In this document: piece by piece, positions 516 through 47,568 of the stretch
Position numbering within the stretch: the first letter of the stretch is position 1
Layout of the letters: each line of letters begins with the position of its first letter
IMG/VR virus record: IMGVR_UViG_3300027819_000001
Coordinates: 17,541 to 81,540 of that record
Direction: 5' to 3' (one strand)
Source: a virus
Lineage: Duplodnaviria > Caudoviricetes
Length of the DNA: 64,000 nucleotides
Translations under genes and position numbers: made by a program
The notes under the pieces: generated by a model
What the model saw: only the letters and a program-made list of their open reading frames with translations
The model's database searches: none
What the model was told of the DNA's origin: nothing

Positions 516-3179
516 TCAGCCCACGACCGCGACGACGAATTCTGGAACTCCAGCAATCAATGTTGGAGCCGTACCAAAGTCTAGGCGGATTTGGTTGCTG
601 TTCAGCACCACCACGTTGCAACTCCAAAGCGCGCCTGTGCTGGCCTTCCTGAGGCTGATTGCAGCCGGGTTGCTGGTGCCAAGATTGTGCGTGACGGTTA
701 TACTGGTAGAGGACCCATCCCCAACATTCTCCATGAAGACTTGAGCGACTTTCAGGCGAGTCACGCTCGCCCCGCTGTAGATGCGCGAGAAATAGAGCCA
801 ACGATTCACATCGTCGTACTCGAGCATTCCAGACGTACCGCCTCCCGCCACAGTCGTCGCGGCCAAAATGAATTGATTCGCTAAACAATAGCCTTCGAAT
901 GCTCCACTGGCCGTGCAGTAAAAACTTCCACACGTCACGTCCGCTAGGTTGGTGTCGCTCGAAACATCTAGTGTTCCTCCAACCAGAGCCCCGGCTGTTA
1001 CGGTTCCGGCAATCGTAATCGCTCCAAAGCCTGTCGATATGGCTCCTGCCACCAATGTCCCGACACCGGTAATGCCTGTCGTCTGGCTCCAGGAAGGCGC
1101 GACTCCCACCCCACCGCTGATCAGAACCCGGCCCGTCGCCACATCGGCCAGCTTGGCCAAACTGGTCGTGGTGTCGGCATACGGAATGTCACCAACCGCA
1201 TACGACGCAAAGCCAGTTCCACCGTTTGTTGCTGGGAGCGTGCCGGTCACGTGTGTCGTGAGTCCAACCTTGCCCCAAGCCGGAGCGGTCACGAGACCAC
1301 CGGAGAGCAGCACATTACCGGTCGCGACATCAGCAAGTGCGGAAAGCGTGGTGGCCCCGCTGGCATAAATCAAATCACCAACCGCGTAGCTGGTCAGGCC
1401 GGTACCGCCCTGGCCGGGAGGAACGGTTCCGGTGATGGCGCTGAATGGAATCGTCGCGGAACTGATGAAGTTGTTCGTGCCGTCTGTCAGGACATATTGG
1501 TTCGCCGTCAAGGTCGTGACAGTCATGCTATCGAAGGTCCCGGTCCCGGCCACCGTGATATCCGTGCCCGTGATGGCACCGCTGAAGCTGGCCGCGCCAG
1601 TCGCGAGCGAGATGCTGGTCAGGAGTCCATCCTTCTTGACTGAGAACTTGCTGGATCCACCCACTGCCAAACTCATCAGGAGGCTGGCCGCGTTGCTGCT
1701 CGAATCGGACACGTTGGCATAGATCAATGTCGGGGTCCCGGACGTGTTCCAGGTATCGCTCATGACCAGCAGGCCCGTGGCTCCGCTGCCTGTCACCTGG
1801 CCACCCGCAACCGTGAAGGCCGCATTGTTGGTCATAGTGAAAGTGAAACCCGCACCCGTTCCAACCGTCGTCATGGCCACCGCCCCGGCTGCTCCAATCG
1901 AAAGTGAAAGGTAATTTGACGTGTCGTATCCAGCCCGGAACTGTTCGGTTGTCCCGAGCGTGTGGATAAACGCACCAGGCGAAGCCGTCCCAATGCCAAG
2001 CTTTCCGGCAGCGGTCAACGTCCCGGCTGTGGCATTATTTGCCATGAAGGTCAGGGCATGATTGCTGGTGGTCCCAATCGATCCAGTTGACCCATCATTC
2101 TTGGTCGCCAGAACGAGTGAACCACTGGTGTGCTGGAAGCCAACCCCGCTGTTCGTCACGCCAAGAATACCGGAGGCATACGTGAAGTTTGCGCTATTGG
2201 CGAGCGTACTGGTGGTTGCCCCGTAAAGCACGCCGTTGGCTGTCCAGGTGGTGCCAGCATTGACCTTGAGGCTGAAGACCGTGCCGGTCAGGTCAATCCC
2301 GTTGCCAGCCGAATACGTGCTGGTCTGGAAGAACAACACCCAGTTAAGCGCCGTTGTGTCCACTGTTGGATTAACGACCGTCTGGCTGTAGGAATGGCCA
2401 GCGTTCACGGTTCCAGCCGTAACCAGAATGTAGGCGCCAGCCGTCAACTCCGCGGTCGTGTCGGCATCCGTCGCCCTAGTCAGCGCAACCGTTCCACCAC
2501 CCGGAGTGCCAGCCACGTACACACCATCGTAAGCATGACTTGCCGCTACGATTCCATCCGGGCTCGCCGTGTCCTTTACGAGGATCCTATCTCCAGCGAC
2601 AATCGTTCCCCCATCCATCGACGTTGAGACAGCCGTCAGATCAGCTATCACCCCTGTCGTGGCAAGTCGTGCAGGACCACCAGCCAAAGCCCTGAGACCA
2701 GTCGATAGGCCATCCACATAGCCCTTGTTGGCCGCATGATCAGTAGCGGTCGGGGTCGCGACTCGAAGGGTCCCAGACGTATCGTAGACTGGGATGAAGT
2801 TCTGGACGGCTGCGGCACTCGGGTCGCTCACGGCATGATAGCCATCGAGCATGTCAGAGTTCAGGTACGTGACCTTTCCGGTTCCATTGCTGGCCACCGT
2901 GAAAGGCACTACACCCGAGCCTGTCTTGGCGAAGTTCCACGCTGCCGTCACATTTTCCGCTACGTCCAGGCGGGGAATTGAAATCCAGTCCCCAGTACTC
3001 CCGCCGTCCGCCTGCATGTACCAAAGGTGCAACCCCGCAAGATTCGAGTCGAATCCGATCAATCCCTTGTTCCATGGAGATCCGAAGTCGGAGAAAGCCG
3101 TGAAAGGATGAAGGCGGATGTTATTCGCGGGAGCCCCGCTAAAGTCCGCCGTTATTCCCTTAAATGGAAATGGAACCAT
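516..3179 (-). CDS. Tail fibre / receptor-binding protein
   Basis: 887 aa, G/T/A/S-rich. Contains fibre motifs (HAANKGYVD, DRILVKD, GIGTASP) and two GGTG.SYAVGD..YA...LA.LADVATG.VL.SGG repeats. Confidence 0.85.
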   Translation of the reverse strand: MVPFPFKGITADFSGAPANNIRLHPFTAFSDFGSPWNKGLIGFDSNLAGLHLWYMQADGGSTGDWISIPRLDVAENVTAAWNFAKTGSGVVPFTVASNGTGKVTYLNSDMLDGYHAVSDPSAAAVQNFIPVYDTSGTLRVATPTATDHAANKGYVDGLSTGLRALAGGPARLATTGVIADLTAVSTSMDGGTIVAGDRILVKDTASPDGIVAASHAYDGVYVAGTPGGGTVALTRATDADTTAELTAGAYILVTAGTVNAGHSYSQTVVNPTVDTTALNWVLFFQTSTYSAGNGIDLTGTVFSLKVNAGTTWTANGVLYGATTSTLANSANFTYASGILGVTNSGVGFQHTSGSLVLATKNDGSTGSIGTTSNHALTFMANNATAGTLTAAGKLGIGTASPGAFIHTLGTTEQFRAGYDTSNYLSLSIGAAGAVAMTTVGTGAGFTFTMTNNAAFTVAGGQVTGSGATGLLVMSDTWNTSGTPTLIYANVSDSSSNAASLLMSLAVGGSSKFSVKKDGLLTSISLATGAASFSGAITGTDITVAGTGTFDSMTVTTLTANQYVLTDGTNNFISSATIPFSAITGTVPPGQGGTGLTSYAVGDLIYASGATTLSALADVATGNVLLSGGLVTAPAWGKVGLTTHVTGTLPATNGGTGFASYAVGDIPYADTTTSLAKLADVATGRVLISGGVGVAPSWSQTTGITGVGTLVAGAISTGFGAITIAGTVTAGALVGGTLDVSSDTNLADVTCGSFYCTASGAFEGYCLANQFILAATTVAGGGTSGMLEYDDVNRWLYFSRIYSGASVTRLKVAQVFMENVGDGSSTSITVTHNLGTSNPAAISLRKASTGALWSCNVVVLNSNQIRLDFGTAPTLIAGVPEFVVAVVG

Positions 3180-3816: not shown

Positions 3817-5898
3817 TCAGAGCTTGTTGTCGAATCGCAATCCAACCGTCTGTCCAATGGCCGATATTTGGCAAGCACCTCCGGTCCCGGAAATCTTGAT
3901 CTCCCAGTACAGGCATTGTCCTCGCCTGTACAGCGGCCATTTCATTGGCCCAGACGTTGGCCTTTGATTGTTGTCCTCCAACACGGACACATCCGAATCG
4001 CCACAATCGAGGTATTTAACCTCCTGGACCTCCCACAGCAGAGGACATACGCCGTCATTGTTTGGATCGACCGGCCTTGCCGATACTCCGACTCGCACGT
4101 ATAGCGGCGAAGGTGTAGTCTGAATTTCTGGAAGGATGTCCAAGAGGAACTCGGTGAACTCCTTCTCAAACGACCTTTGATCGAACGTTTCAGCCCCGCT
4201 TCGCAGAATGGAATCGTATCCATCCAGCACGTATGTCCCAATACTTGACGTGTACCCTCTCCTGGCATTCTCTCCCACCGCCGTCGTGTTTGTGCATCTC
4301 TCCCTTGAGAACGTTTCCTGGTCGAACTCCTTGATGCACCAGTCAACCGAACATGCTCCAGCAAACACGCTTCCTTGAGGGCATGGATCACAGTCCATTT
4401 CTTCGATGAGCGCGCAGACAGAATTAGCACTCGGCTGTGCCTGAGTCCAGTCCTCCACAGTTGCTCCATCAATGGTTACCTCGACCGTCGTGTAGAGCGG
4501 CCCGAGTGCCGGGCAGTTTGTCGGAATGTTCTGCGGCAACCCCTGCTTCACAATCGCCAACCCCTGTCCATCTTGGCCAAGCTCAGACGGTGTGCAAATG
4601 CAGTTCGAAATCAGGAAGTCGTACACTGTCTTTCGAACATTGTGCTCCGAGTTGCAGAAGGCGGTGAATCCATGGTCAATTGTGTGGCATGTCCTCTGCG
4701 CTGTATCGATCACAAACGTACGATCGTTGAGCCCGGTTGTTGAAAGCTTTGGCGTCCAGGAGAAGTAGATTGACTTGTCCGACGCATTGAATGCCGCACA
4801 GTGGGACTCGCACCAGGTATTGCTGATGTCGTTGAAAATTACCGCCGTGCCAGCGTGTATCCAGTCCAATCTCTCCGGTGCCTGGGAGAACACAGAGAAT
4901 CGGTACATGCCATCTCGACCTGCGTAAACAACCTCATCCCCGATGCTGCACAGAGTGTTGCGGTAAAACAGGCACGCCTCGCCTGTCTTCGTAGGTGTGT
5001 ACTTCTTGTCGAAGGAGAACGGTTGATCAACCTGCCCAACCAAGCCCATGATCCAAATCCGCTTGTTGGTAAAGATCAGGAAGTACTGGCCAAGCTCAAT
5101 GCCGTCCACGATCTCTTCGCCAGGGTCAAGATCCTGAAACCCAGCAATTGAGTCCAGCTTTCCAGGGTCCCACGAAAGAGGATCGTCCTTGTCGCTCCAG
5201 TAAATTCGATTCAGGTAACGCACACCGCCAACCTCAACGTTCGCGATGAAGGAGACTCCCTGCCACGACCAGACAGCTTTAGCCTTTCGTATTTGGAACG
5301 TCAGAAGATCAGGTATTGGATGCACCGCCTGCAAAGCACACCCAAGCGTTGGAGCGTCAAACTGCCAGGAAAGGATGTCGTCGTAGTCGTTGGTGAAGAG
5401 GACGTAATCTCCGTTCTGCGCAGCCCTGAAACGAATCTTCGGAGCCGTTCCATCATCAGTCCCTTGTCCATACCCGTCCCCAATGATCTTGTAATTCTGT
5501 CCGTACTCGTAACCGGCATACAACCGAGACTCTGTTCCAACGATGAGCCGTCGCACCCCTGAGGAGGAAGTCGCCTGGAACATCATCGTAATCGGTTGCC
5601 GTCCAGTATCTCGGACTTGGAGTTCTCCTTCACAATCGCCTGGAAACACCCTCTCGCTATCAGGTCCACCAGCGTAGTAAGTCTGCAACACCAGAAGCTG
5701 ATCGTGGAGATCGGAGTTTCCATTCCCATATTTCGTCCATCCTCCCGAGCGAACGAGCTTGTTTGGGTCAGGCGTGTGAAAGTTCTGCCGCATCCGGACG
5801 GCACCAGGGATCATGAGGTCCGGATTCGACCGGTTATCCAACACCCCGGTCACCGGCCTTATCCACTTTGTCTCTGGAATCTGGCGTGCTTTGGCCAT
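3817..5898 (-). CDS. Tail nozzle / stabilization protein (P22 gp10 / T7 gp12-like beta-propeller)
   Basis: 693 aa with propeller-like repeats (RLIVGTESRLY, NRIYWSD.DDP.SW, FLIFTNKRIW); position among tail genes. Confidence 0.7.
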   Translation of the reverse strand: MAKARQIPETKWIRPVTGVLDNRSNPDLMIPGAVRMRQNFHTPDPNKLVRSGGWTKYGNGNSDLHDQLLVLQTYYAGGPDSERVFPGDCEGELQVRDTGRQPITMMFQATSSSGVRRLIVGTESRLYAGYEYGQNYKIIGDGYGQGTDDGTAPKIRFRAAQNGDYVLFTNDYDDILSWQFDAPTLGCALQAVHPIPDLLTFQIRKAKAVWSWQGVSFIANVEVGGVRYLNRIYWSDKDDPLSWDPGKLDSIAGFQDLDPGEEIVDGIELGQYFLIFTNKRIWIMGLVGQVDQPFSFDKKYTPTKTGEACLFYRNTLCSIGDEVVYAGRDGMYRFSVFSQAPERLDWIHAGTAVIFNDISNTWCESHCAAFNASDKSIYFSWTPKLSTTGLNDRTFVIDTAQRTCHTIDHGFTAFCNSEHNVRKTVYDFLISNCICTPSELGQDGQGLAIVKQGLPQNIPTNCPALGPLYTTVEVTIDGATVEDWTQAQPSANSVCALIEEMDCDPCPQGSVFAGACSVDWCIKEFDQETFSRERCTNTTAVGENARRGYTSSIGTYVLDGYDSILRSGAETFDQRSFEKEFTEFLLDILPEIQTTPSPLYVRVGVSARPVDPNNDGVCPLLWEVQEVKYLDCGDSDVSVLEDNNQRPTSGPMKWPLYRRGQCLYWEIKISGTGGACQISAIGQTVGLRFDNKL

Positions 5899-19772: not shown

Positions 19773-19793
19773 AATCGTAGTCCGTAAGCCGTT
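19770..19793 (-). promoter_or_regulatory. ACGG-repeat motif copy (AACGGCTTACGGACTACGATT-ATG)
   Basis: Near-identical to 38183-38206 and 47736-47757. Confidence 0.6.
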
Positions 19794-36855: not shown

Positions 36856-37995
36856 TCACTGCTTCCCGTCTTTTCCCAGAACCAACAGTTCTTCATCTCG
36901 AACTTTGCTGCCAGCCACATCACGCAACCGCAACCGTTCAGCGTGCTGGCCCCACGTAAGAGGACCTTTGTTCGGGTTATATTCCCACAGGTTCCGAATG
37001 TACGGTCGAAATTCGGACATCTTCGACACCCATTTAATCTCGACACGTAAAGGCGCCACGGGGAGCGGGTAAAGATTGGTATTCCACACAGGAACAGGAA
37101 GTGCATACCACCGTACTTTAGGAGCCGGAAGAATCCGATCTCGCGGTGAAGAATAGGCAATACGACCATCGTCGCGATCAGCCAATGAGAAAAACGGAGC
37201 ATTGAGCGTCGCGCACCACGTCCGATACGCTCTCCAAATCGTCGGCAACATCGCCTTGATCGTTTCAACCTGTCGTTCATGATAAACCGCCATTCGTTTC
37301 TTGCTGGCGGCAAATGCCTTTCGCTTCTCTCGAACCGCTACCATTTTGAACCACGACAGGTTCGGAGAAAACTCCAGTGTCCACTGATAGCGTCTCTCCT
37401 TCTTATCGAACGCCCTCAGCTTTTCATCCAGCAAATTCCGGCCAATGCGTTCGAATTCCTCCTGCCGAGTGCTTGGACCACTATTGTCGGAGTCGATGTC
37501 CCAAAGGACTTCCTTCCAGTTGCCACGGAGAGGGAACGCCGCCAGCCTCGCGAACTTGAAATTGACCACTGATCCGTAGTTGAGAATGCAATGGGCCATG
37601 GTCTCGCAGATCATCGTCCACATCACATCCGCCGCTTCCAGGTTGATGAAGATCCCCCGCCCGACAAGTTCGTTTAGGAAATCGTCGTCCTCCTTGTGGC
37701 GCTCGCTACGAAACTGCTTGATGTACGCGTCCGGGTTCCAAACCACCACGTCCTCAGGATCCTTCTCTTCCGATCGTACCGCCACATCCTCCAGCTTGTG
37801 CCGTTGGATGTACCAGGATGTCTCGTCTTTCTGTTCGTGGACGACCTGCCGAAGCAAATCGAGGAGAATCACCTTTTGCTTTTTGAGAAGCGGGATGTCC
37901 GGGAGTTGGATCGTCAGCATATCCGTCCCTTCAGGCACTTCGACCTTGAGAGGAAATCGCCACCAATCGCTTTTTACCGTCCAAAGTTCAGTCAT
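36856..37995 (-). CDS. Hypothetical protein (379 aa), first gene of the leftward unit
   Basis: Long ORF; no secure motif. Confidence 0.65.
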   Translation of the reverse strand: MTELWTVKSDWWRFPLKVEVPEGTDMLTIQLPDIPLLKKQKVILLDLLRQVVHEQKDETSWYIQRHKLEDVAVRSEEKDPEDVVVWNPDAYIKQFRSERHKEDDDFLNELVGRGIFINLEAADVMWTMICETMAHCILNYGSVVNFKFARLAAFPLRGNWKEVLWDIDSDNSGPSTRQEEFERIGRNLLDEKLRAFDKKERRYQWTLEFSPNLSWFKMVAVREKRKAFAASKKRMAVYHERQVETIKAMLPTIWRAYRTWCATLNAPFFSLADRDDGRIAYSSPRDRILPAPKVRWYALPVPVWNTNLYPLPVAPLRVEIKWVSKMSEFRPYIRNLWEYNPNKGPLTWGQHAERLRLRDVAGSKVRDEELLVLGKDGKQ

Positions 37996-38011
37996 CCGTT
38001 GTCCGTTGAAT

Positions 38012-38084
38012 TGGCCACCCCTGGGCTCGCACCAGGACCTCCCACCACTGGTTTGATGGTCGTCCTACTTTAGACCAGGCAGCC
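38012..38084 (-). tRNA. tRNA-like element / pseudo-tRNA with a non-canonical anticodon loop (CAAACCA) and no encoded CCA
   Basis: Cloverleaf by hand: acceptor GGCTGCC/GGTGGCC, D stem GTCT/GGAC, anticodon stem ACCAT/GTGGT, T arm CCTGG-TGCGAGC-CCAGG, discriminator A; 73 nt. Confidence 0.7.
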
Positions 38085-38136
38085 GTTAAAAAGCTGCGCC
38101 GGGAGATCCCGAACGCAGCCCCAGGAATACACGCGA

Positions 38137-38164
38137 TTGACAAATATCGTCGATTCTTTAGGCT
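38137..38164 (+). promoter_or_regulatory. Sigma70-like promoter for the recombination/replication unit
   Basis: TTGACA-N16-TAGGCT. Confidence 0.6.
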
Positions 38165-38182: not shown

Positions 38183-38206
38183 AACGGCTTACGGACACGA
38201 TATATG
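38183..38206 (+). promoter_or_regulatory. ACGG-repeat motif copy (AACGGCTTACGGACACGATAT-ATG)
   Basis: Matches the copies at 19770 and 47736. Confidence 0.6.
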
Positions 38207-39265
38207 AAAACCTTCAGCAGAAATCCCTCTATGAGCGATCAAAACCCCTCACAAGCACTCACCGTCCATCATGAAAACATGGCGGTTTCAGCGCCTCTCA
38301 CCCTCCGGGAAATCAAAGATCAGGTCAACCTTATCCAGCAGGTCATGCGTGACGTGATGGTTGACGGTGAGCACTACGGCACGATTCCTGGCACGAACAA
38401 GGACAAGAAATCCCTTCTTAAACCAGGAGCAGAAAAGCTCTGCCTCACGTTTCGGTTCGCTCCGTCCTACGAATTGACGAAAACCGATCTCGGTGGTGGC
38501 CACGTCGATTACGAAATGGTCTGCACGCTTAGGACGATCCAGAGCGGAACCATCGTTGGGCAAGGACTTGGGTCCTGCAACACTCGGGAAAAGAAATACC
38601 TTTATCGCCCTGGTCCGGTTGAATTCACAGGTCAACCGGTTCCGCAGGCGTATTGGGATATGCGCAAGTCCAATCCTAAGCAGGCCCAGGAATCTATTGG
38701 AGGCGTCGGATTTGCGGCAGCAAAGAATCCAGAAAATGGTTTCTATGAAATTGCCATCAAAGGAGAGACAATCGAACACGACAATCCAGCGGACTACTAC
38801 AACACGTGCCTGAAAATGTGTACCAAGAGAGCACTGGTAGCAGCCATCCTGACAGCCACCGCCGCCTCCGACATCTTTGTTCAGGACCTCGATGATGATC
38901 CTGATGATCTCCCGGAAGACGCCAAGCCAAAGCCTGAGGCAAAGACCACCCCGGCGAAGAAGACCGAACCTGCCAAGGATGCTCCCAAAGATCCACTAAA
39001 GGAACCTGCCAAGGCTCCCGAAGGCAAAGCTCCGGAAGCTGCTGGTGGTTGGAAGGAAGTCGCGATCCACTTCGGGAAGAACAAGGGTATCAAGCTTGGC
39101 GCTCTCGAAGACAACTCGCTCAACTGGTATATCGAGAACTTCGAACCGAAGGAATACAACGGCAAGTTCCAGCAAAATGACCTTGACCTCCGTGCTGCCC
39201 TTAACCAGGCAGCGAATGAACTGGAACAGGGTGCCAACAAGAACAACGAACCTCCCGCCCAATGA
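38204..39265 (+). CDS. Single-strand annealing / recombinase-like protein
   Basis: EHYG.IPG..KKSLLKPGAEKL and NT.LKM..KRALV.A.L motifs; next to an exonuclease. Confidence 0.75.
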   Translation: MKTFSRNPSMSDQNPSQALTVHHENMAVSAPLTLREIKDQVNLIQQVMRDVMVDGEHYGTIPGTNKDKKSLLKPGAEKLCLTFRFAPSYELTKTDLGGGHVDYEMVCTLRTIQSGTIVGQGLGSCNTREKKYLYRPGPVEFTGQPVPQAYWDMRKSNPKQAQESIGGVGFAAAKNPENGFYEIAIKGETIEHDNPADYYNTCLKMCTKRALVAAILTATAASDIFVQDLDDDPDDLPEDAKPKPEAKTTPAKKTEPAKDAPKDPLKEPAKAPEGKAPEAAGGWKEVAIHFGKNKGIKLGALEDNSLNWYIENFEPKEYNGKFQQNDLDLRAALNQAANELEQGANKNNEPPAQ

Positions 39266-39909
39266 GCTACCAAATCTTCGACATTGAGACCGGACCTCTC
39301 CCTGAGGACCAACTCGCCAGGATAAAACCGGACTTCAAGGCGCCGTCCAACTACAAGGATCCGGTCAAGATCGCCCAGAACATCGCCATCCAACACCAGG
39401 AATGGATATCTGACGCCGCACTTTCGGCTCAAACCGGCCAAATTCTCTGCATCGGCATGTCGGACGGCATCGATTACCAAGTCCTGGAAGGGACCGAGGA
39501 GGAACTCCTGGAGCGATTCTGGCTGGAATGGAGATTTGTCAAAATCCCGGAGCGCGTATTTGTGGGGCACAACATCAAGGGGTTCGATCTTCAGTTCCTC
39601 GTCCAGCGCACCTTCATCCATGGGCTTTACTGCCCTTCGGACGTAATCGAGGGCAACCGATGGAACAAACGCTTCCTCGACACCATGGAGTGGTGGGGTT
39701 GCCGGGCTCATCAATCGTTCATCTCCCTGGACCAACTCTCTAAAGTGCTCGGATTCGGGCCAAAAATAGGCACAGGAGCCGACTTTCACAAACTTTGGGC
39801 TCTGGATCGCCCCAAGGCCGTAGAATACGTCCTGGACGATTTAAAGCGCACCAAGAACTGCGCCGCCAAGATGGGAATGCTCCCACGAACTGAACCTTCC
39901 GCTGGCTGA
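39262..39909 (+). CDS. DnaQ/PolB-type 3'-5' exonuclease
   Basis: FDIET (ExoI), GHNIKGFD (ExoII), Y...D (ExoIII). Confidence 0.85.
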   Translation: MSYQIFDIETGPLPEDQLARIKPDFKAPSNYKDPVKIAQNIAIQHQEWISDAALSAQTGQILCIGMSDGIDYQVLEGTEEELLERFWLEWRFVKIPERVFVGHNIKGFDLQFLVQRTFIHGLYCPSDVIEGNRWNKRFLDTMEWWGCRAHQSFISLDQLSKVLGFGPKIGTGADFHKLWALDRPKAVEYVLDDLKRTKNCAAKMGMLPRTEPSAG

Positions 39910-44749: not shown

Positions 44750-46251
44750 ATTCCACGACCACCGTAACCGGTCCTGATGTCCAGGACTGCCCATTCCCGG
44801 CAGAAGCGGATAACCATAGGCCCGTAAAATCGACGCTAAGGCCCCTAAACGCCTCCGAGAGGCTTCCGCCGCACTCGATGGAGGCAGAACAAGGGATCCT
44901 TGGCTGCGTGCTCCTTGGAGGCGATTCTATGGGCCAATGCATCGAAGAGCTCCCGATGGGGGTGATGTCGTTCTACGACCTTCGTCACCAGCAGCTATTC
45001 GAGACCATGTCTGAAATGTATCAGGAACAGGTGCCGATTGATGCCATAACGGTTCAACAGAAGCTCCGGGACCAGGGTCAACTTGAGGCTGTGGGAGGAC
45101 TTTCCTACCTGTTCAAGCTGACGGAGGCTGTTCCGAGTGCCACCCATATCGGTCATTACATCGGGATTGTGGCTGAAAAGGCTATGCTCCGGGACATCGT
45201 TAGGGTGTGTACCGGGTGCGTTGCCAGGCTTTACGATCATGAGGATGAGCCAAGGGGTGTGTTGGAAGGGCTTGAGCGCGATGTGATGAAGATAGGGACG
45301 GCTTGCTCCGTAGGAGGGGTGAAACCGATCAAAGATCTGGTCCATGGCGCCATAAACGCCATTGAGGATTGCCATCAAAAAGGGAAGATGCTCAGCGGAT
45401 TGAGCACCGGGTTCATCGATTTCGACAAAATGACCAGGGGGTTGAAGGGGAACGAGTTCATCGTCATCGCAGGTAGACCTTCGATGGGCAAGAGCAGTAT
45501 CGCCATGAACATGGTAGAGCACATCGCCATCGACCAAGGTCAAGCGGTGGGGGTGTTCAGCCTGGAAATGAGCGCCGAATCCCTGGTTCTGAGAATGTTG
45601 TGCTCGCGCTCTAGGGTGAATCTGAACAATCTCCAGGACGGGTTCCTTCCAGATCGATACTTTCCAAAGATCACCGGGGCGGCAGGGCAGCTAGCCAAGG
45701 CTCCGATCTTCATAGACGACACCGCCTCCATGACCGTGATGCAGCTTCGGGCAAAGTCTCACCGGATGGTGGCACAGTACCGCATAAAGCTGATCGTGAT
45801 CGATTACATCCAGTTGGTTAAGCCATCCAGGTCGGACGGAAAGATGGACCGTAACCGTGAGATCGGTGAGATTTCGGCTGGGATCAAAGCACTGTCCAAG
45901 GAACTGAACATTCCAGTGATTGCATTGAGCCAGTTGAATCGTGACGTTGAACGGGAGAAGAACAGGAAGCCGAAGCTCTCCGATCTCCGCGACTCCGGTT
46001 CCATAGAACAGGATGCTGACATTGTCTGCATGCTCTACAAACCGAACGAGCACGCAGAAGACGGAGAATTATCCCGCGTATTCGAAGCCGTTCCAATCAA
46101 TCTCCTGATCGCCAAACAACGAAACGGTCCGACCGGGGACGTTCATCTCACATTCCTCAAAGGATACACACGGTTCGAGAGCGCCGCCAAGGTGAGCAAT
46201 GAGGACGTTCCTCCGGATGACCAATACACCATGCCATACCAAGAATCATGA
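44746..46251 (+). CDS. dnaB: Replicative DNA helicase
   Basis: PPHS.EAEQ, GRPSMGKS, IVIDYIQL, SQLNR, DLRDSGSIEQDAD, AKQRNGPTG. Confidence 0.97.
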   Translation: MNSTTTVTGPDVQDCPFPAEADNHRPVKSTLRPLNASERLPPHSMEAEQGILGCVLLGGDSMGQCIEELPMGVMSFYDLRHQQLFETMSEMYQEQVPIDAITVQQKLRDQGQLEAVGGLSYLFKLTEAVPSATHIGHYIGIVAEKAMLRDIVRVCTGCVARLYDHEDEPRGVLEGLERDVMKIGTACSVGGVKPIKDLVHGAINAIEDCHQKGKMLSGLSTGFIDFDKMTRGLKGNEFIVIAGRPSMGKSSIAMNMVEHIAIDQGQAVGVFSLEMSAESLVLRMLCSRSRVNLNNLQDGFLPDRYFPKITGAAGQLAKAPIFIDDTASMTVMQLRAKSHRMVAQYRIKLIVIDYIQLVKPSRSDGKMDRNREIGEISAGIKALSKELNIPVIALSQLNRDVEREKNRKPKLSDLRDSGSIEQDADIVCMLYKPNEHAEDGELSRVFEAVPINLLIAKQRNGPTGDVHLTFLKGYTRFESAAKVSNEDVPPDDQYTMPYQES

Positions 46252-46820
46252 ATCCAGAACTCGCAGAAATCTACCTCACCATGTCCCGCGTCCTGATCGA
46301 TTGTGGTCCCGTCGTGATCGCCGGTGGTGCCGTCCGGGACACGTTGATGGGAGTAGAACCAAAGGATTACGACGTTTTCATACTGAACACCGACAAGGCA
46401 AAGGATGGAAAGACAATCGCGGAGAAGCTGGCCGTTGAATTCAAAACCGTGGAACCGAAGGAATACCACAAGTCCGAACCTTACTTAGTCGAGACGGTGA
46501 TGGTAGGAGATGCCTTTGTTCAGGTGATGGCATCCTCGTTCACGAGTGTTACCGAGTTGGTGGCATCATTCGATTGGAACGTGTGCCTGTTCGCCTACGA
46601 TGGAGAGTTCCACCAACGCACTTCCATCGAGGACATCGCGCCTGGCAAGGACCTCGTGCTCCAGAAGAACACATTCCCGGTGAGCACGCTCCGACGTGGA
46701 TTCCGTTTTAGCGAACGATTCGGCATGAAGCTGCCAAAGGACACGCTTATCCAGCTCTGCATTGATGTGCTGGAGCAGTCGCAGATCGACGATCATAACA
46801 TTCAGGAACCACCGCTATGA
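46248..46820 (+). CDS. tRNA nucleotidyltransferase / poly(A) polymerase head-domain protein
   Basis: IAGGAVRD.L.G.EPKDYD motif; SFDWNVC; RRGFRF; 190 aa. Confidence 0.8.
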   Translation: MNPELAEIYLTMSRVLIDCGPVVIAGGAVRDTLMGVEPKDYDVFILNTDKAKDGKTIAEKLAVEFKTVEPKEYHKSEPYLVETVMVGDAFVQVMASSFTSVTELVASFDWNVCLFAYDGEFHQRTSIEDIAPGKDLVLQKNTFPVSTLRRGFRFSERFGMKLPKDTLIQLCIDVLEQSQIDDHNIQEPPL

Positions 46821-46967
46821 CCTACGAATTCACCATCGCCTACCGTGGACACCTCACCATCGTGGCTAAGACCGAAGAGGAAGCCACCGAACTCGCGGAG
46901 CAACAGCTTCCCGATGATGCCAGAATCGATGTCGAGTGCAGTGTTCCAGTTCAAAAATCGAATCCTG

Positions 46968-46996
46968 TTGACGAATAGCCCATGCGCACGTAAGTG
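46968..46996 (+). promoter_or_regulatory. Sigma70-like promoter of the KH gene
   Basis: TTGACG-N17-TAAGTG, followed by AACGGCGACGATTGACGACT-ATG. Confidence 0.55.
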
Positions 46997-47025
46997 TTTC
47001 ACAACAACGGCGACGATTGACGACT

Positions 47026-47568
47026 ATGACCAAACCTCAGGCTAAAGAATGTTCCGACTTTCTCTTCCTCACGATATCCAAGTTGGTAACAACGCCAGAC
47101 GAACTTCAGGTGGGTGATTTGCTTGGGAACTCTTTCCCTGTATCGGCCAACAAGCTGGACCGGAAACTGATCATCGGCGCCAAGGGACGTACGATCGCCA
47201 GCATCACGGCATTCCTGAATCAGTTCGCATCGGTGCGAGGATTGCAGACGGACCTGGAGGTAAAGGTCCAGGATGATCCCGAGTCCGGCAATGGAAGCCA
47301 GGAGAGGATCCCGGACGTTCGAAAACGATGGGCGGAGTCAGACAATGATTCGATAAGAGTTTTGGCTGGAAACATTTACGCTCGATTGTTTCCATATTCT
47401 CACAGCCTGATCCTGGTCAGGTCTTCGGCACGCGAGACGGTGGTTGAGTTGGACCAGAACGAATTAAACCCAACGTTGATGGGAGCTTTCTTCCACTACT
47501 TCCGGGCCGTGGGAATGTCCCGAGGCAGAGTGATAACCTTTGTCAGGCTCGATGAAGTCGTGCCGTGA
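47026..47568 (+). CDS. KhpA-like KH-domain RNA-binding protein with a C-terminal extension
   Basis: FL...ISKLV..PDEL.V ... LIIGAKGRTIASI (GxxG loop). Confidence 0.75.
   Translation: MTKPQAKECSDFLFLTISKLVTTPDELQVGDLLGNSFPVSANKLDRKLIIGAKGRTIASITAFLNQFASVRGLQTDLEVKVQDDPESGNGSQERIPDVRKRWAESDNDSIRVLAGNIYARLFPYSHSLILVRSSARETVVELDQNELNPTLMGAFFHYFRAVGMSRGRVITFVRLDEVVP

Follow-up and report, generated by a model that had tools for sequence, protein, structure and literature searches.

We analyze a 64,000-nucleotide (nt) stretch of phage DNA (Duplodnaviria; Caudoviricetes), hereafter the window, which comprises bases 17541-81540 of the 81,540-bp IMG/VR virus record IMGVR_UViG_3300027819_000001. Within it, a 73-nt element shaped like a transfer RNA (tRNA) lies at 38012..38084 on the minus strand, in a 208-nt gap that separates two divergent gene blocks. 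To one side, a leftward block extends from 37995 down to about 33968 and begins with the gene for an orphan protein of 379 amino acids (aa; 36856..37995, minus strand); to the other, a rightward replication/recombination block begins with a phrog_10048 gene (38204..39265, plus strand). The element has the orientation of the leftward block, is homologous to a family of tRNA-Gln/Glu genes from phage contigs, and combines an intact cloverleaf with an anticodon arm that cannot decode. We tentatively favour the view that it is a tRNA-derived, non-decoding module kept in the operon leader and cut out by RNase P/Z, a reading that we rate as somewhat short of probable. Besides such a leader-processing signal, a small RNA and a recently killed tRNA gene are candidate readings of the element.

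An intact cloverleaf with a non-decoding anticodon arm

ARAGORN reports the element as 'tRNA-Val(AAC)', the sole tRNA-like gene that it finds either in the window or across the genome. The acceptor stem GGCUGCC/GGUGGCC pairs 38084-38078 with 38019-38013 (7 pairs, 2 of them G.U; all parts lie on the minus strand). In the ARAGORN drawing there follow a D arm at 38075-38062 (stem GUCU/GGAC, loop AAAGUA without GG), an anticodon arm at 38060-38044 (stem ACCAU/GUGGU), a 7-nt variable region GGGAGGU at 38043-38037 and a T arm at 38036-38020 (stem CCUGG/CCAGG, loop UGCGAGC with G55). All 21 of the 21 stem pairs are formed, 4 being G.U. The anticodon loop, CAAACCA at 38055-38049, has A33 and C37, and the discriminator A at 38012 is followed by AUU, so that CCA is not encoded. 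The initial annotation had described a cloverleaf 16 nt ahead of the ATG at 37995, an anticodon loop without U33 or purine 37, and no encoded CCA. The sequence and ARAGORN bear out the first of these claims, and the other two hold as well, no pairing register yielding a decoding loop.

The element exceeds what chance would produce, because shuffled sequence rarely gives tRNA calls (2 ARAGORN calls across 300 dinucleotide shuffles of the 81.5-kb genome) and because a covariance model of its family, described below, scores it at 44.2 bits. The general tRNA model of Rfam behaves differently from ARAGORN. Of the tRNA programs that had been proposed for checking the element, ARAGORN returned its one call, whereas RF00005 (curated threshold 29 bits) gave no match at E<=10 in the window, an 801-nt sequence, the genome or a 97-nt slice. 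The Rfam collection as a whole, at gathering and permissive thresholds, returned for the window and for the 801-nt and 97-nt sequences a single match, to a small nucleolar RNA model, that we attribute to chance. Y RNA/YrlA, transfer-messenger RNA (tmRNA) and other curated tRNA mimics were considered and set aside, with no Rfam model match at E<=10 and no tmRNA call by ARAGORN.

A phage-only tRNA-Gln/Glu family and its altered elbow

The family was found with a search pattern built from the D arm and T loop common to the window element and an odd tRNA on a distantly related contig (L013:2361-2433). Its matches numbered 10 contigs in IMG/VR and 38 in metagenomes; a search of 185,579 bacterial and archaeal genomes gave only two, neither of them a tRNA. 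Megablast and blastn searches with a canonical family member returned nothing from GenBank phage isolates (50,697 phage records), and a literature search found no description of phage tRNAs that lack the D-loop GG. Most of the phage matches, which come from uncultivated phages of soil and groundwater, are ordinary tRNA-Gln (UUG or CUG), with a few tRNA-Glu (CUC), and about 27 are ordinary decoders lying in arrays that hold up to 25 tRNAs. Canonical members have a 70-nt body, a 4-nt variable loop, an encoded CCA and the anticodon loop CUUUGAA or CUCUGAA. Their D arm is GUCUAA(A/U)GUA(G/A)GAC, with a 6-nt loop that has no GG, and their T loop is U(G/U)CGAGU; the commonest form combines the D arm GUCUAAAGUAGGAC with the T loop UGCGAGU, and a variant form pairs AAUGUA with UUCGAGU. 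In a gap-free alignment of 21 canonical members, 98.9% of cells are paired and 129 double-sided changes support the cloverleaf (alignment A2: L021, L023, L025, L028-L030, L034-L036, L044, L054-L057, L062, L063, L068, L069). On the Rfam tRNA model these 21 reach 42-52 bits, and the range across family members is 41-52 bits.

The third base of the D loop covaries with T-loop position 55: 21 distinct members have A-G, 8 have U-U and 1 is an exception (Fisher p 1.5e-6). The search pattern permitted all four combinations, so the covariation is not built in. The A/G or U/U pair apparently replaces the usual G18/U55 contact, giving an altered but working tRNA elbow. The window element carries the A/G form, its D arm is identical to the commonest family form at 14 of 14 positions, and its T loop matches at 6 of 7; the D-arm and T-loop matches arise partly by construction, the pattern having been derived from the window and L013, while the existence of the family and its stem pairing are independent of that origin. 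A covariance model built from the 21 canonical members (R1) matches the element over model positions 1-70 with 44.2 bits and an E value of 2.6e-12, the next match in the window reaching 10.6 bits. To judge by its sequence, the element is a descendant of this phage-only tRNA-Gln/Glu lineage. The array-bearing phages have neither the phrog_10048 protein nor the terminase in common with the phage studied here.

Seen against this family, two of the features that the initial annotation had listed as broken take on a different meaning. The GG-less D loop and G55 are present as described, but they do not represent lost identity or decay, because they are fixed in a family of array-borne tRNAs with normal anticodon loops. 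The true deviations of the element from its family are the anticodon arm and the absent CCA. It keeps U8, the whole D arm, G52, G53, C61, C62, the UGCGAG T loop with G55 opposite the D-loop A, and all stem pairing (7, 4, 5 and 5 pairs). It has lost U33, U35, G36 and purine 37, its loop being CAAACCA where the family has CU(U/C)UGAA, and it has G1:C72 in place of U1:A72; these are all positions for decoding or for recognition by glutaminyl-tRNA synthetase. The D and T stems are also separated by 3 more nt than in the family, position 60 has changed from U to C, and the element stands as a single copy in an operon leader, unlike the family genes in their tRNA arrays. Compensatory stem changes, for which the initial annotation had pointed to relatives, are found in this comparison: at 8 of the 21 pairs both bases depart from the commonest family pair, and pairing is kept in each. 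The number of G.U pairs, 4, compares with a family mean of 2.7 and a maximum of 5.

About one in five distinct family members has an unusable or odd anticodon loop, several of them with intact stems. One has a single loop base deleted relative to the tRNA-Glu of L026 (L024:304-372), one has a 6-nt anticodon loop (L022:3474-3543), one has lost its acceptor ends while an intact tRNA-Gln stands in the same array (L051:856-916), and one has an anticodon loop without U33 (L067:591-660).

More distant phages offer a second comparison. We assembled 19 distant relatives that carry a phrog_10048 gene, the closest of which also share the adjacent exonuclease gene, and in 6 of the 19 the tRNA model finds one match. 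The L013 tRNA stands 560 nt upstream of the phrog_10048 gene; it is of the family type with a near-identical D arm, has the anticodon AUG and contains two acceptor mismatches. In L072 (1501-1573, plus strand), L073 (of the L073/L074 type; 1498-1603, minus strand) and L075 (1498-1600, minus strand), a tRNA-shaped RNA has its anticodon arm capped by a tetraloop (GACG or UAUA) or by a 3-pair stem with a 6-nt loop. The cloverleaf is the minimum-energy structure in L072, L073/L074 and L075 (z-scores -2.5 to -4.1), and compensated changes distinguish the acceptor and T stems of L072, L073 and L075. Like the window element, these RNAs occur once per genome, have a GG-less D arm (L072 shares the GUCU/GGAC D stem), intact acceptor and T arms and no usable anticodon loop, and lie co-oriented before a late-gene block. 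They differ in their T loops (UUUAAAU, UUAAAAU), in having a tetraloop or a long extra arm (the latter in the L073/L074 and L075 types) and not a 7-nt loop, and in preceding HNH or terminase genes, not tail genes; those of L072 and L073 encode CCA. The RNAs of L072, L073 and L075 come after a phrog_1128 gene and small open reading frames (ORFs), with a terminase gene downstream in L072 and two HNH endonuclease genes in L075; no family matched the 440-aa ORF downstream of the L073 RNA. From their sequences, the capped RNAs clearly cannot decode and look maintained, which would show that this phage group keeps tRNA-shaped RNAs for another use. A pattern search for further capped tRNA-like sequences recovered near-identical sequences only.

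Processing signal, pseudogene or mimic

The position of the element bears directly on what it might do. A terminator-like hairpin with U5 occupies 38088..38119 on the minus strand, with a GC-rich stem of 11 pairs and one bulge (38119-38108 / 38103-38093), the loop AUCU, and U5 at 38092-38088. The stem has an energy of -18.5 kcal/mol (-21.6 with flanks), and in a genome-wide scan the hairpin is among the three cleanest hairpin-plus-U-run sites, the other two of which lie just past gene 3' ends; a scan with a simple terminator consensus does not list it. Between U5 and the 5' end of the element there are 3 nt, AAC. This leaves no room for a promoter, so the element would be transcribed only as part of a read-through leader. 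Between its 3' end and the ATG lies the 16-nt spacer AUUCAACGGACAACGG (37996..38011, minus strand), which contains an AACGG/ACGG repeat. From the gene order, we infer that this region is the leader of the leftward tail-gene operon.

If the element is a processing signal, transcription that reads through past the hairpin and U5 would copy the module, host RNase P would cleave at the start of the module, between 38085 and 38084, and cleavage after the discriminator at 38012 would fall to RNase Z or an enzyme like it. The two cuts would free the message from the leader that bears the terminator, place the mRNA 5' end 16 nt ahead of the ATG, and yield a tRNA-shaped RNA of 73 nt. Transcription, both cleavages and a benefit to the phage are what we infer here. 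Among the functions that the initial annotation had suggested (decoy, mimic and processing signal), processing fits the position best: the element is co-oriented with the operon and lies between the hairpin and the start codon. The unevenness of change speaks for it too, since the shape-forming positions are all kept and the decoding positions are all lost, and distant relatives carry comparable capped tRNA shapes, an argument by analogy. The earlier proposal that the shape is selected draws support from the intact, compensated stems, but the case is weaker than claimed: the locus has no close relative, and compensation may have come before or after the loss of decoding. A single local change in the anticodon hairpin would also have been enough to abolish decoding while sparing the stems.

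Several points weigh against a processing signal. Most transcription would stop at the upstream terminator unless read-through occurs, and a scan with a sigma-70-like consensus found no leftward promoter upstream of the element. The anticodon stem has two pairing registers: that of ARAGORN, with 5 pairs and a 7-nt loop, and an alternative that is 3 kcal/mol more stable, with a 2-nt linker, 6 pairs (CCAUCA/UGGUGG), a 6-nt loop AACCAG and a 5-nt variable loop. The cloverleaf stands 7.9 kcal/mol above the minimum-energy fold (4.9 in the alternative register), compared with a mean of 1.9 and a worst case of 6.6 kcal/mol in the canonical family. In L013, the closest syntenic relative, the acceptor mismatches look like decay, and the capped RNAs are analogues and not proven orthologues, because their T loops and genomic position differ. 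The search for the locus elsewhere was negative at every level. IMG/VR holds no relatives of the two flanking proteins of 379 and 574 aa, the 379-aa protein has no homologue among 5.8 billion proteins, a metagenome scan for the same D arm with a CAAACCA loop gave no match, and megablast and blastn of the region against the 50,697 phage records returned nothing. These searches thus yielded no orthologous locus by which to judge whether the element is conserved.

The element may instead be a young tRNA pseudogene, that is, a single-copy tRNA of the Gln/Glu lineage that was recently inactivated by a local change and is now functionless; we regard this as a doubtful but entirely realistic alternative. 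It would account for the clear tRNA ancestry combined with lost decoding features, for damage limited to one arm (the altered loop and the 3 additional nt that separate the D stem from the T stem), for the energetically marginal cloverleaf, for an Rfam tRNA model score far under the 41-52 bits of the family, and for the absence of the element from 17 of the 19 relatives. Damage that looks fresh also occurs in family members, namely L024, L022, L051:856-916, L067:591-660 and L013. A candidate event can be named: in reverse complement the loop core UCAAA (window 38049-38056, minus strand) reads UUUGA, which is the centre of the anticodon loop of the family tRNA-Gln(UUG), and one inversion of the hairpin loop plus a small insertion could remove U33, the anticodon and purine 37. 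This may have been the inactivating event, the match being a post hoc one with about a 1% chance of arising. What a pseudogene explains less well is that 21 of 21 pairs and all elbow bases are intact while the positions for decoding or identity have all changed. A tRNA gene that once worked would moreover be oddly placed 3 nt behind a terminator that leaves it no room for a promoter, and relatives retain tRNA shapes that are clearly non-decoding. Phage genomes also tend to lose dead DNA, which counts against a functionless remnant.

A further possibility is that the element acts in trans as a tRNA mimic: the excised 73-nt RNA, tailed by a phage enzyme, would tie up or divert a host protein with affinity for tRNA bodies, for instance a tRNA-targeting defence nuclease. 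We consider this improbable. Its attraction lies in a candidate partner, a predicted minimal class II nucleotidyltransferase of 190 aa (46248..46820, plus strand) encoded directly after dnaB, which has the head and neck of the CCA-adding/poly(A)-polymerase fold. The assignment draws on PF01743 (24 bits, cut-off 23), phrog_1614 (1e-20) and a GGAVRD...KDYD motif, and the source annotations assign PF26128. The structural model has a predicted local distance difference test (pLDDT) score of 93, and its best structural matches are Escherichia coli poly(A) polymerase and CCA-adding enzymes, with template-modelling (TM) scores of 0.55-0.63 and coverage of the head and neck only. Such an enzyme could tail the element, the only tRNA-like gene of the genome and one without CCA, but our comparisons yield no link between the two. 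In L072 and L073 the capped RNAs do have an encoded CCA, a hint that a free 3' end is of importance in those phages. The enzyme is, however, absent from all 19 of the phrog_10048 relatives, carriers of tRNA-like RNAs included; among its IMG/VR homologues, tRNAs lie within 10 kb in one phage type only (2 of the 5 closest loci); and it is without the body and tail domains that hold the tRNA in full-length CCA enzymes. A site behind a terminator in a late-operon leader is also poor for a bulk decoy, and the mimic has no known target. In the region 46248-47568 (plus strand), the nucleotidyltransferase gene and one small ORF are followed by a gene for a 183-aa protein with a weak KH-type RNA-binding match (NF002201, 26 bits), and the two products might together make up an RNA-tailing pair of the phage.

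Phage tRNAs are known to counter tRNA-cleaving defences: they rescue infection from such systems (PMC10264068), and a T5 tRNA acts against PARIS (PMC11464382). These tRNAs resemble the element in being phage-borne tRNA bodies with an altered anticodon loop. They still decode and replace cleaved host tRNAs, whereas the element is non-decoding and we found no link between it and defence.

A broader proposal joins the cis and trans ideas. Phages with this replication module would keep one non-decoding tRNA shape before their late genes; host enzymes would excise it, the message would be matured, and the small RNA, tailed by the phage enzyme, would act on a host tRNA-binding protein. We hold this to be unlikely.

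Three other origins are together very unlikely: a chance fold, a 60-aa gene (38170-37988, minus strand) and an attachment site derived from a host tRNA. A 60-codon frame does cross the region, a 14-codon frame preceded by GGGAGG-N5-GUG lies within it, and the phage has a tyrosine recombinase. Against these stand the family-model E value of 2.6e-12, which speaks against a chance fold; the absence of the 60-aa frame from every source annotation, its lack of any family match and the rare use of Shine-Dalgarno sequences here; and the failure to find the family tRNA type in the 185,579 cellular genomes. The attachment-site idea fails because a distance of 30-50 kb separates the element from the recombinase gene and a cellular tRNA of such a type was not found. 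An unusual decoder, reading valine through A35/C36 with A73 or reading U-CAA-A from an expanded loop, is barely conceivable, for although ARAGORN assigns Val(AAC) and opening the U.G closing pair does place U-CAA-A in the loop, the 7-nt loop is without U33 and has a pyrimidine at position 37, alternative loops of 6, 8, 9 and 11 nt misplace U33, and the Rfam tRNA model gives no match.

Known systems and neighbouring features

Units with a tRNA or tRNA-like shape inside longer transcripts have precedents. In the E. coli operon thrU-tyrU-glyT-thrT-tufB, tRNA genes are co-transcribed ahead of a protein gene, and at MALAT1/mascRNA an RNA end is made by RNase P. In both, as proposed here, a tRNA or tRNA-like unit within a longer transcript is freed by tRNA-processing enzymes; the tRNAs of the tufB operon are functional decoders, unlike the element, and mascRNA, a eukaryotic RNA, is located at a 3' end. 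A closer parallel is offered by the t-elements of plant mitochondria: these tRNA-like sequences mark mRNA ends and have been proposed as cis signals for RNase P and/or RNase Z (Forner et al. 2007, PMC1920247). They share with the element a non-decoding tRNA-like fold beside an mRNA end, here on the same strand as the ATG that it precedes by 16 nt. They belong to an organelle and not to a phage, their transcript ends have been mapped, whereas the element is known from sequence alone, and the phage element is much nearer to true tRNAs in sequence. By proposed function the t-elements are the nearest known system; by sequence, the phage tRNA-Gln/Glu genes are.

Should the proposed processing take place, phages would be employing host tRNA-trimming enzymes to cut their own messages, as mitochondria do, and a former tRNA gene would have been recycled as a cutting signal. 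The family is of interest standing alone. Found here only in uncultivated phage contigs, it swaps the near-universal G18/U55 contact for a covarying pair, and it repeatedly yields copies with unusable anticodon loops. For annotation, such genes appear 'broken' and score low on general tRNA models, and they can hence be missed or misnamed.

The source record has direct terminal repeats and is rated a complete phage genome, its origin being groundwater metagenomes. The public runs that hold the stretch are two groundwater DNA runs, possibly its source, with no RNA run listed. The ATG at 37995 is the start of the 379-aa product in NCBI, IMG and ENA; Logan starts it at the ATG at 37920, giving 354 aa. 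The subsequent ORFs of the leftward block encode 179, 119, 574 and 78 aa, and the 574-aa ORF has a weak tail-spike match. On the rightward side, the phrog_10048 gene is directly followed by a gene for a PolB-type 3'-5' exonuclease (39262-39909, plus strand), with an IstB-like ATPase and DnaB further on. A promoter-like TTGACA-N16-TAGGCT for the rightward gene (38137..38164, plus strand) was read by eye; it falls below the scan threshold, with 3 of 6 positions matching in the second hexamer.

The genome contains no RNA ligase gene. Shine-Dalgarno sequences are rare in this phage, most of whose genes are without one. In the variable loop of the element, GGGAGG is followed after 5 nt by a GUG at 38032 that opens a 14-codon frame with its stop at 37990-37988, overlapping the gene that begins at the ATG at 37995 by 8 nt; we judge this arrangement to be chance because few genes here use such signals. 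A motif AACGG(N3-4)ACGG recurs near several starts, at 38183-38195 (plus strand), 19781-19793 (minus strand), 37996-38007 (minus strand), about 47000 (plus strand) and about 50 (minus strand), and it precedes both of the genes that flank the element. The tyrosine recombinase gene (PF00589, 48 bits) lies outside the window at genome positions 4534-5406 (plus strand) and is followed by about 600 nt without a long ORF; its product may mean that the phage is temperate, or may resolve genome dimers.

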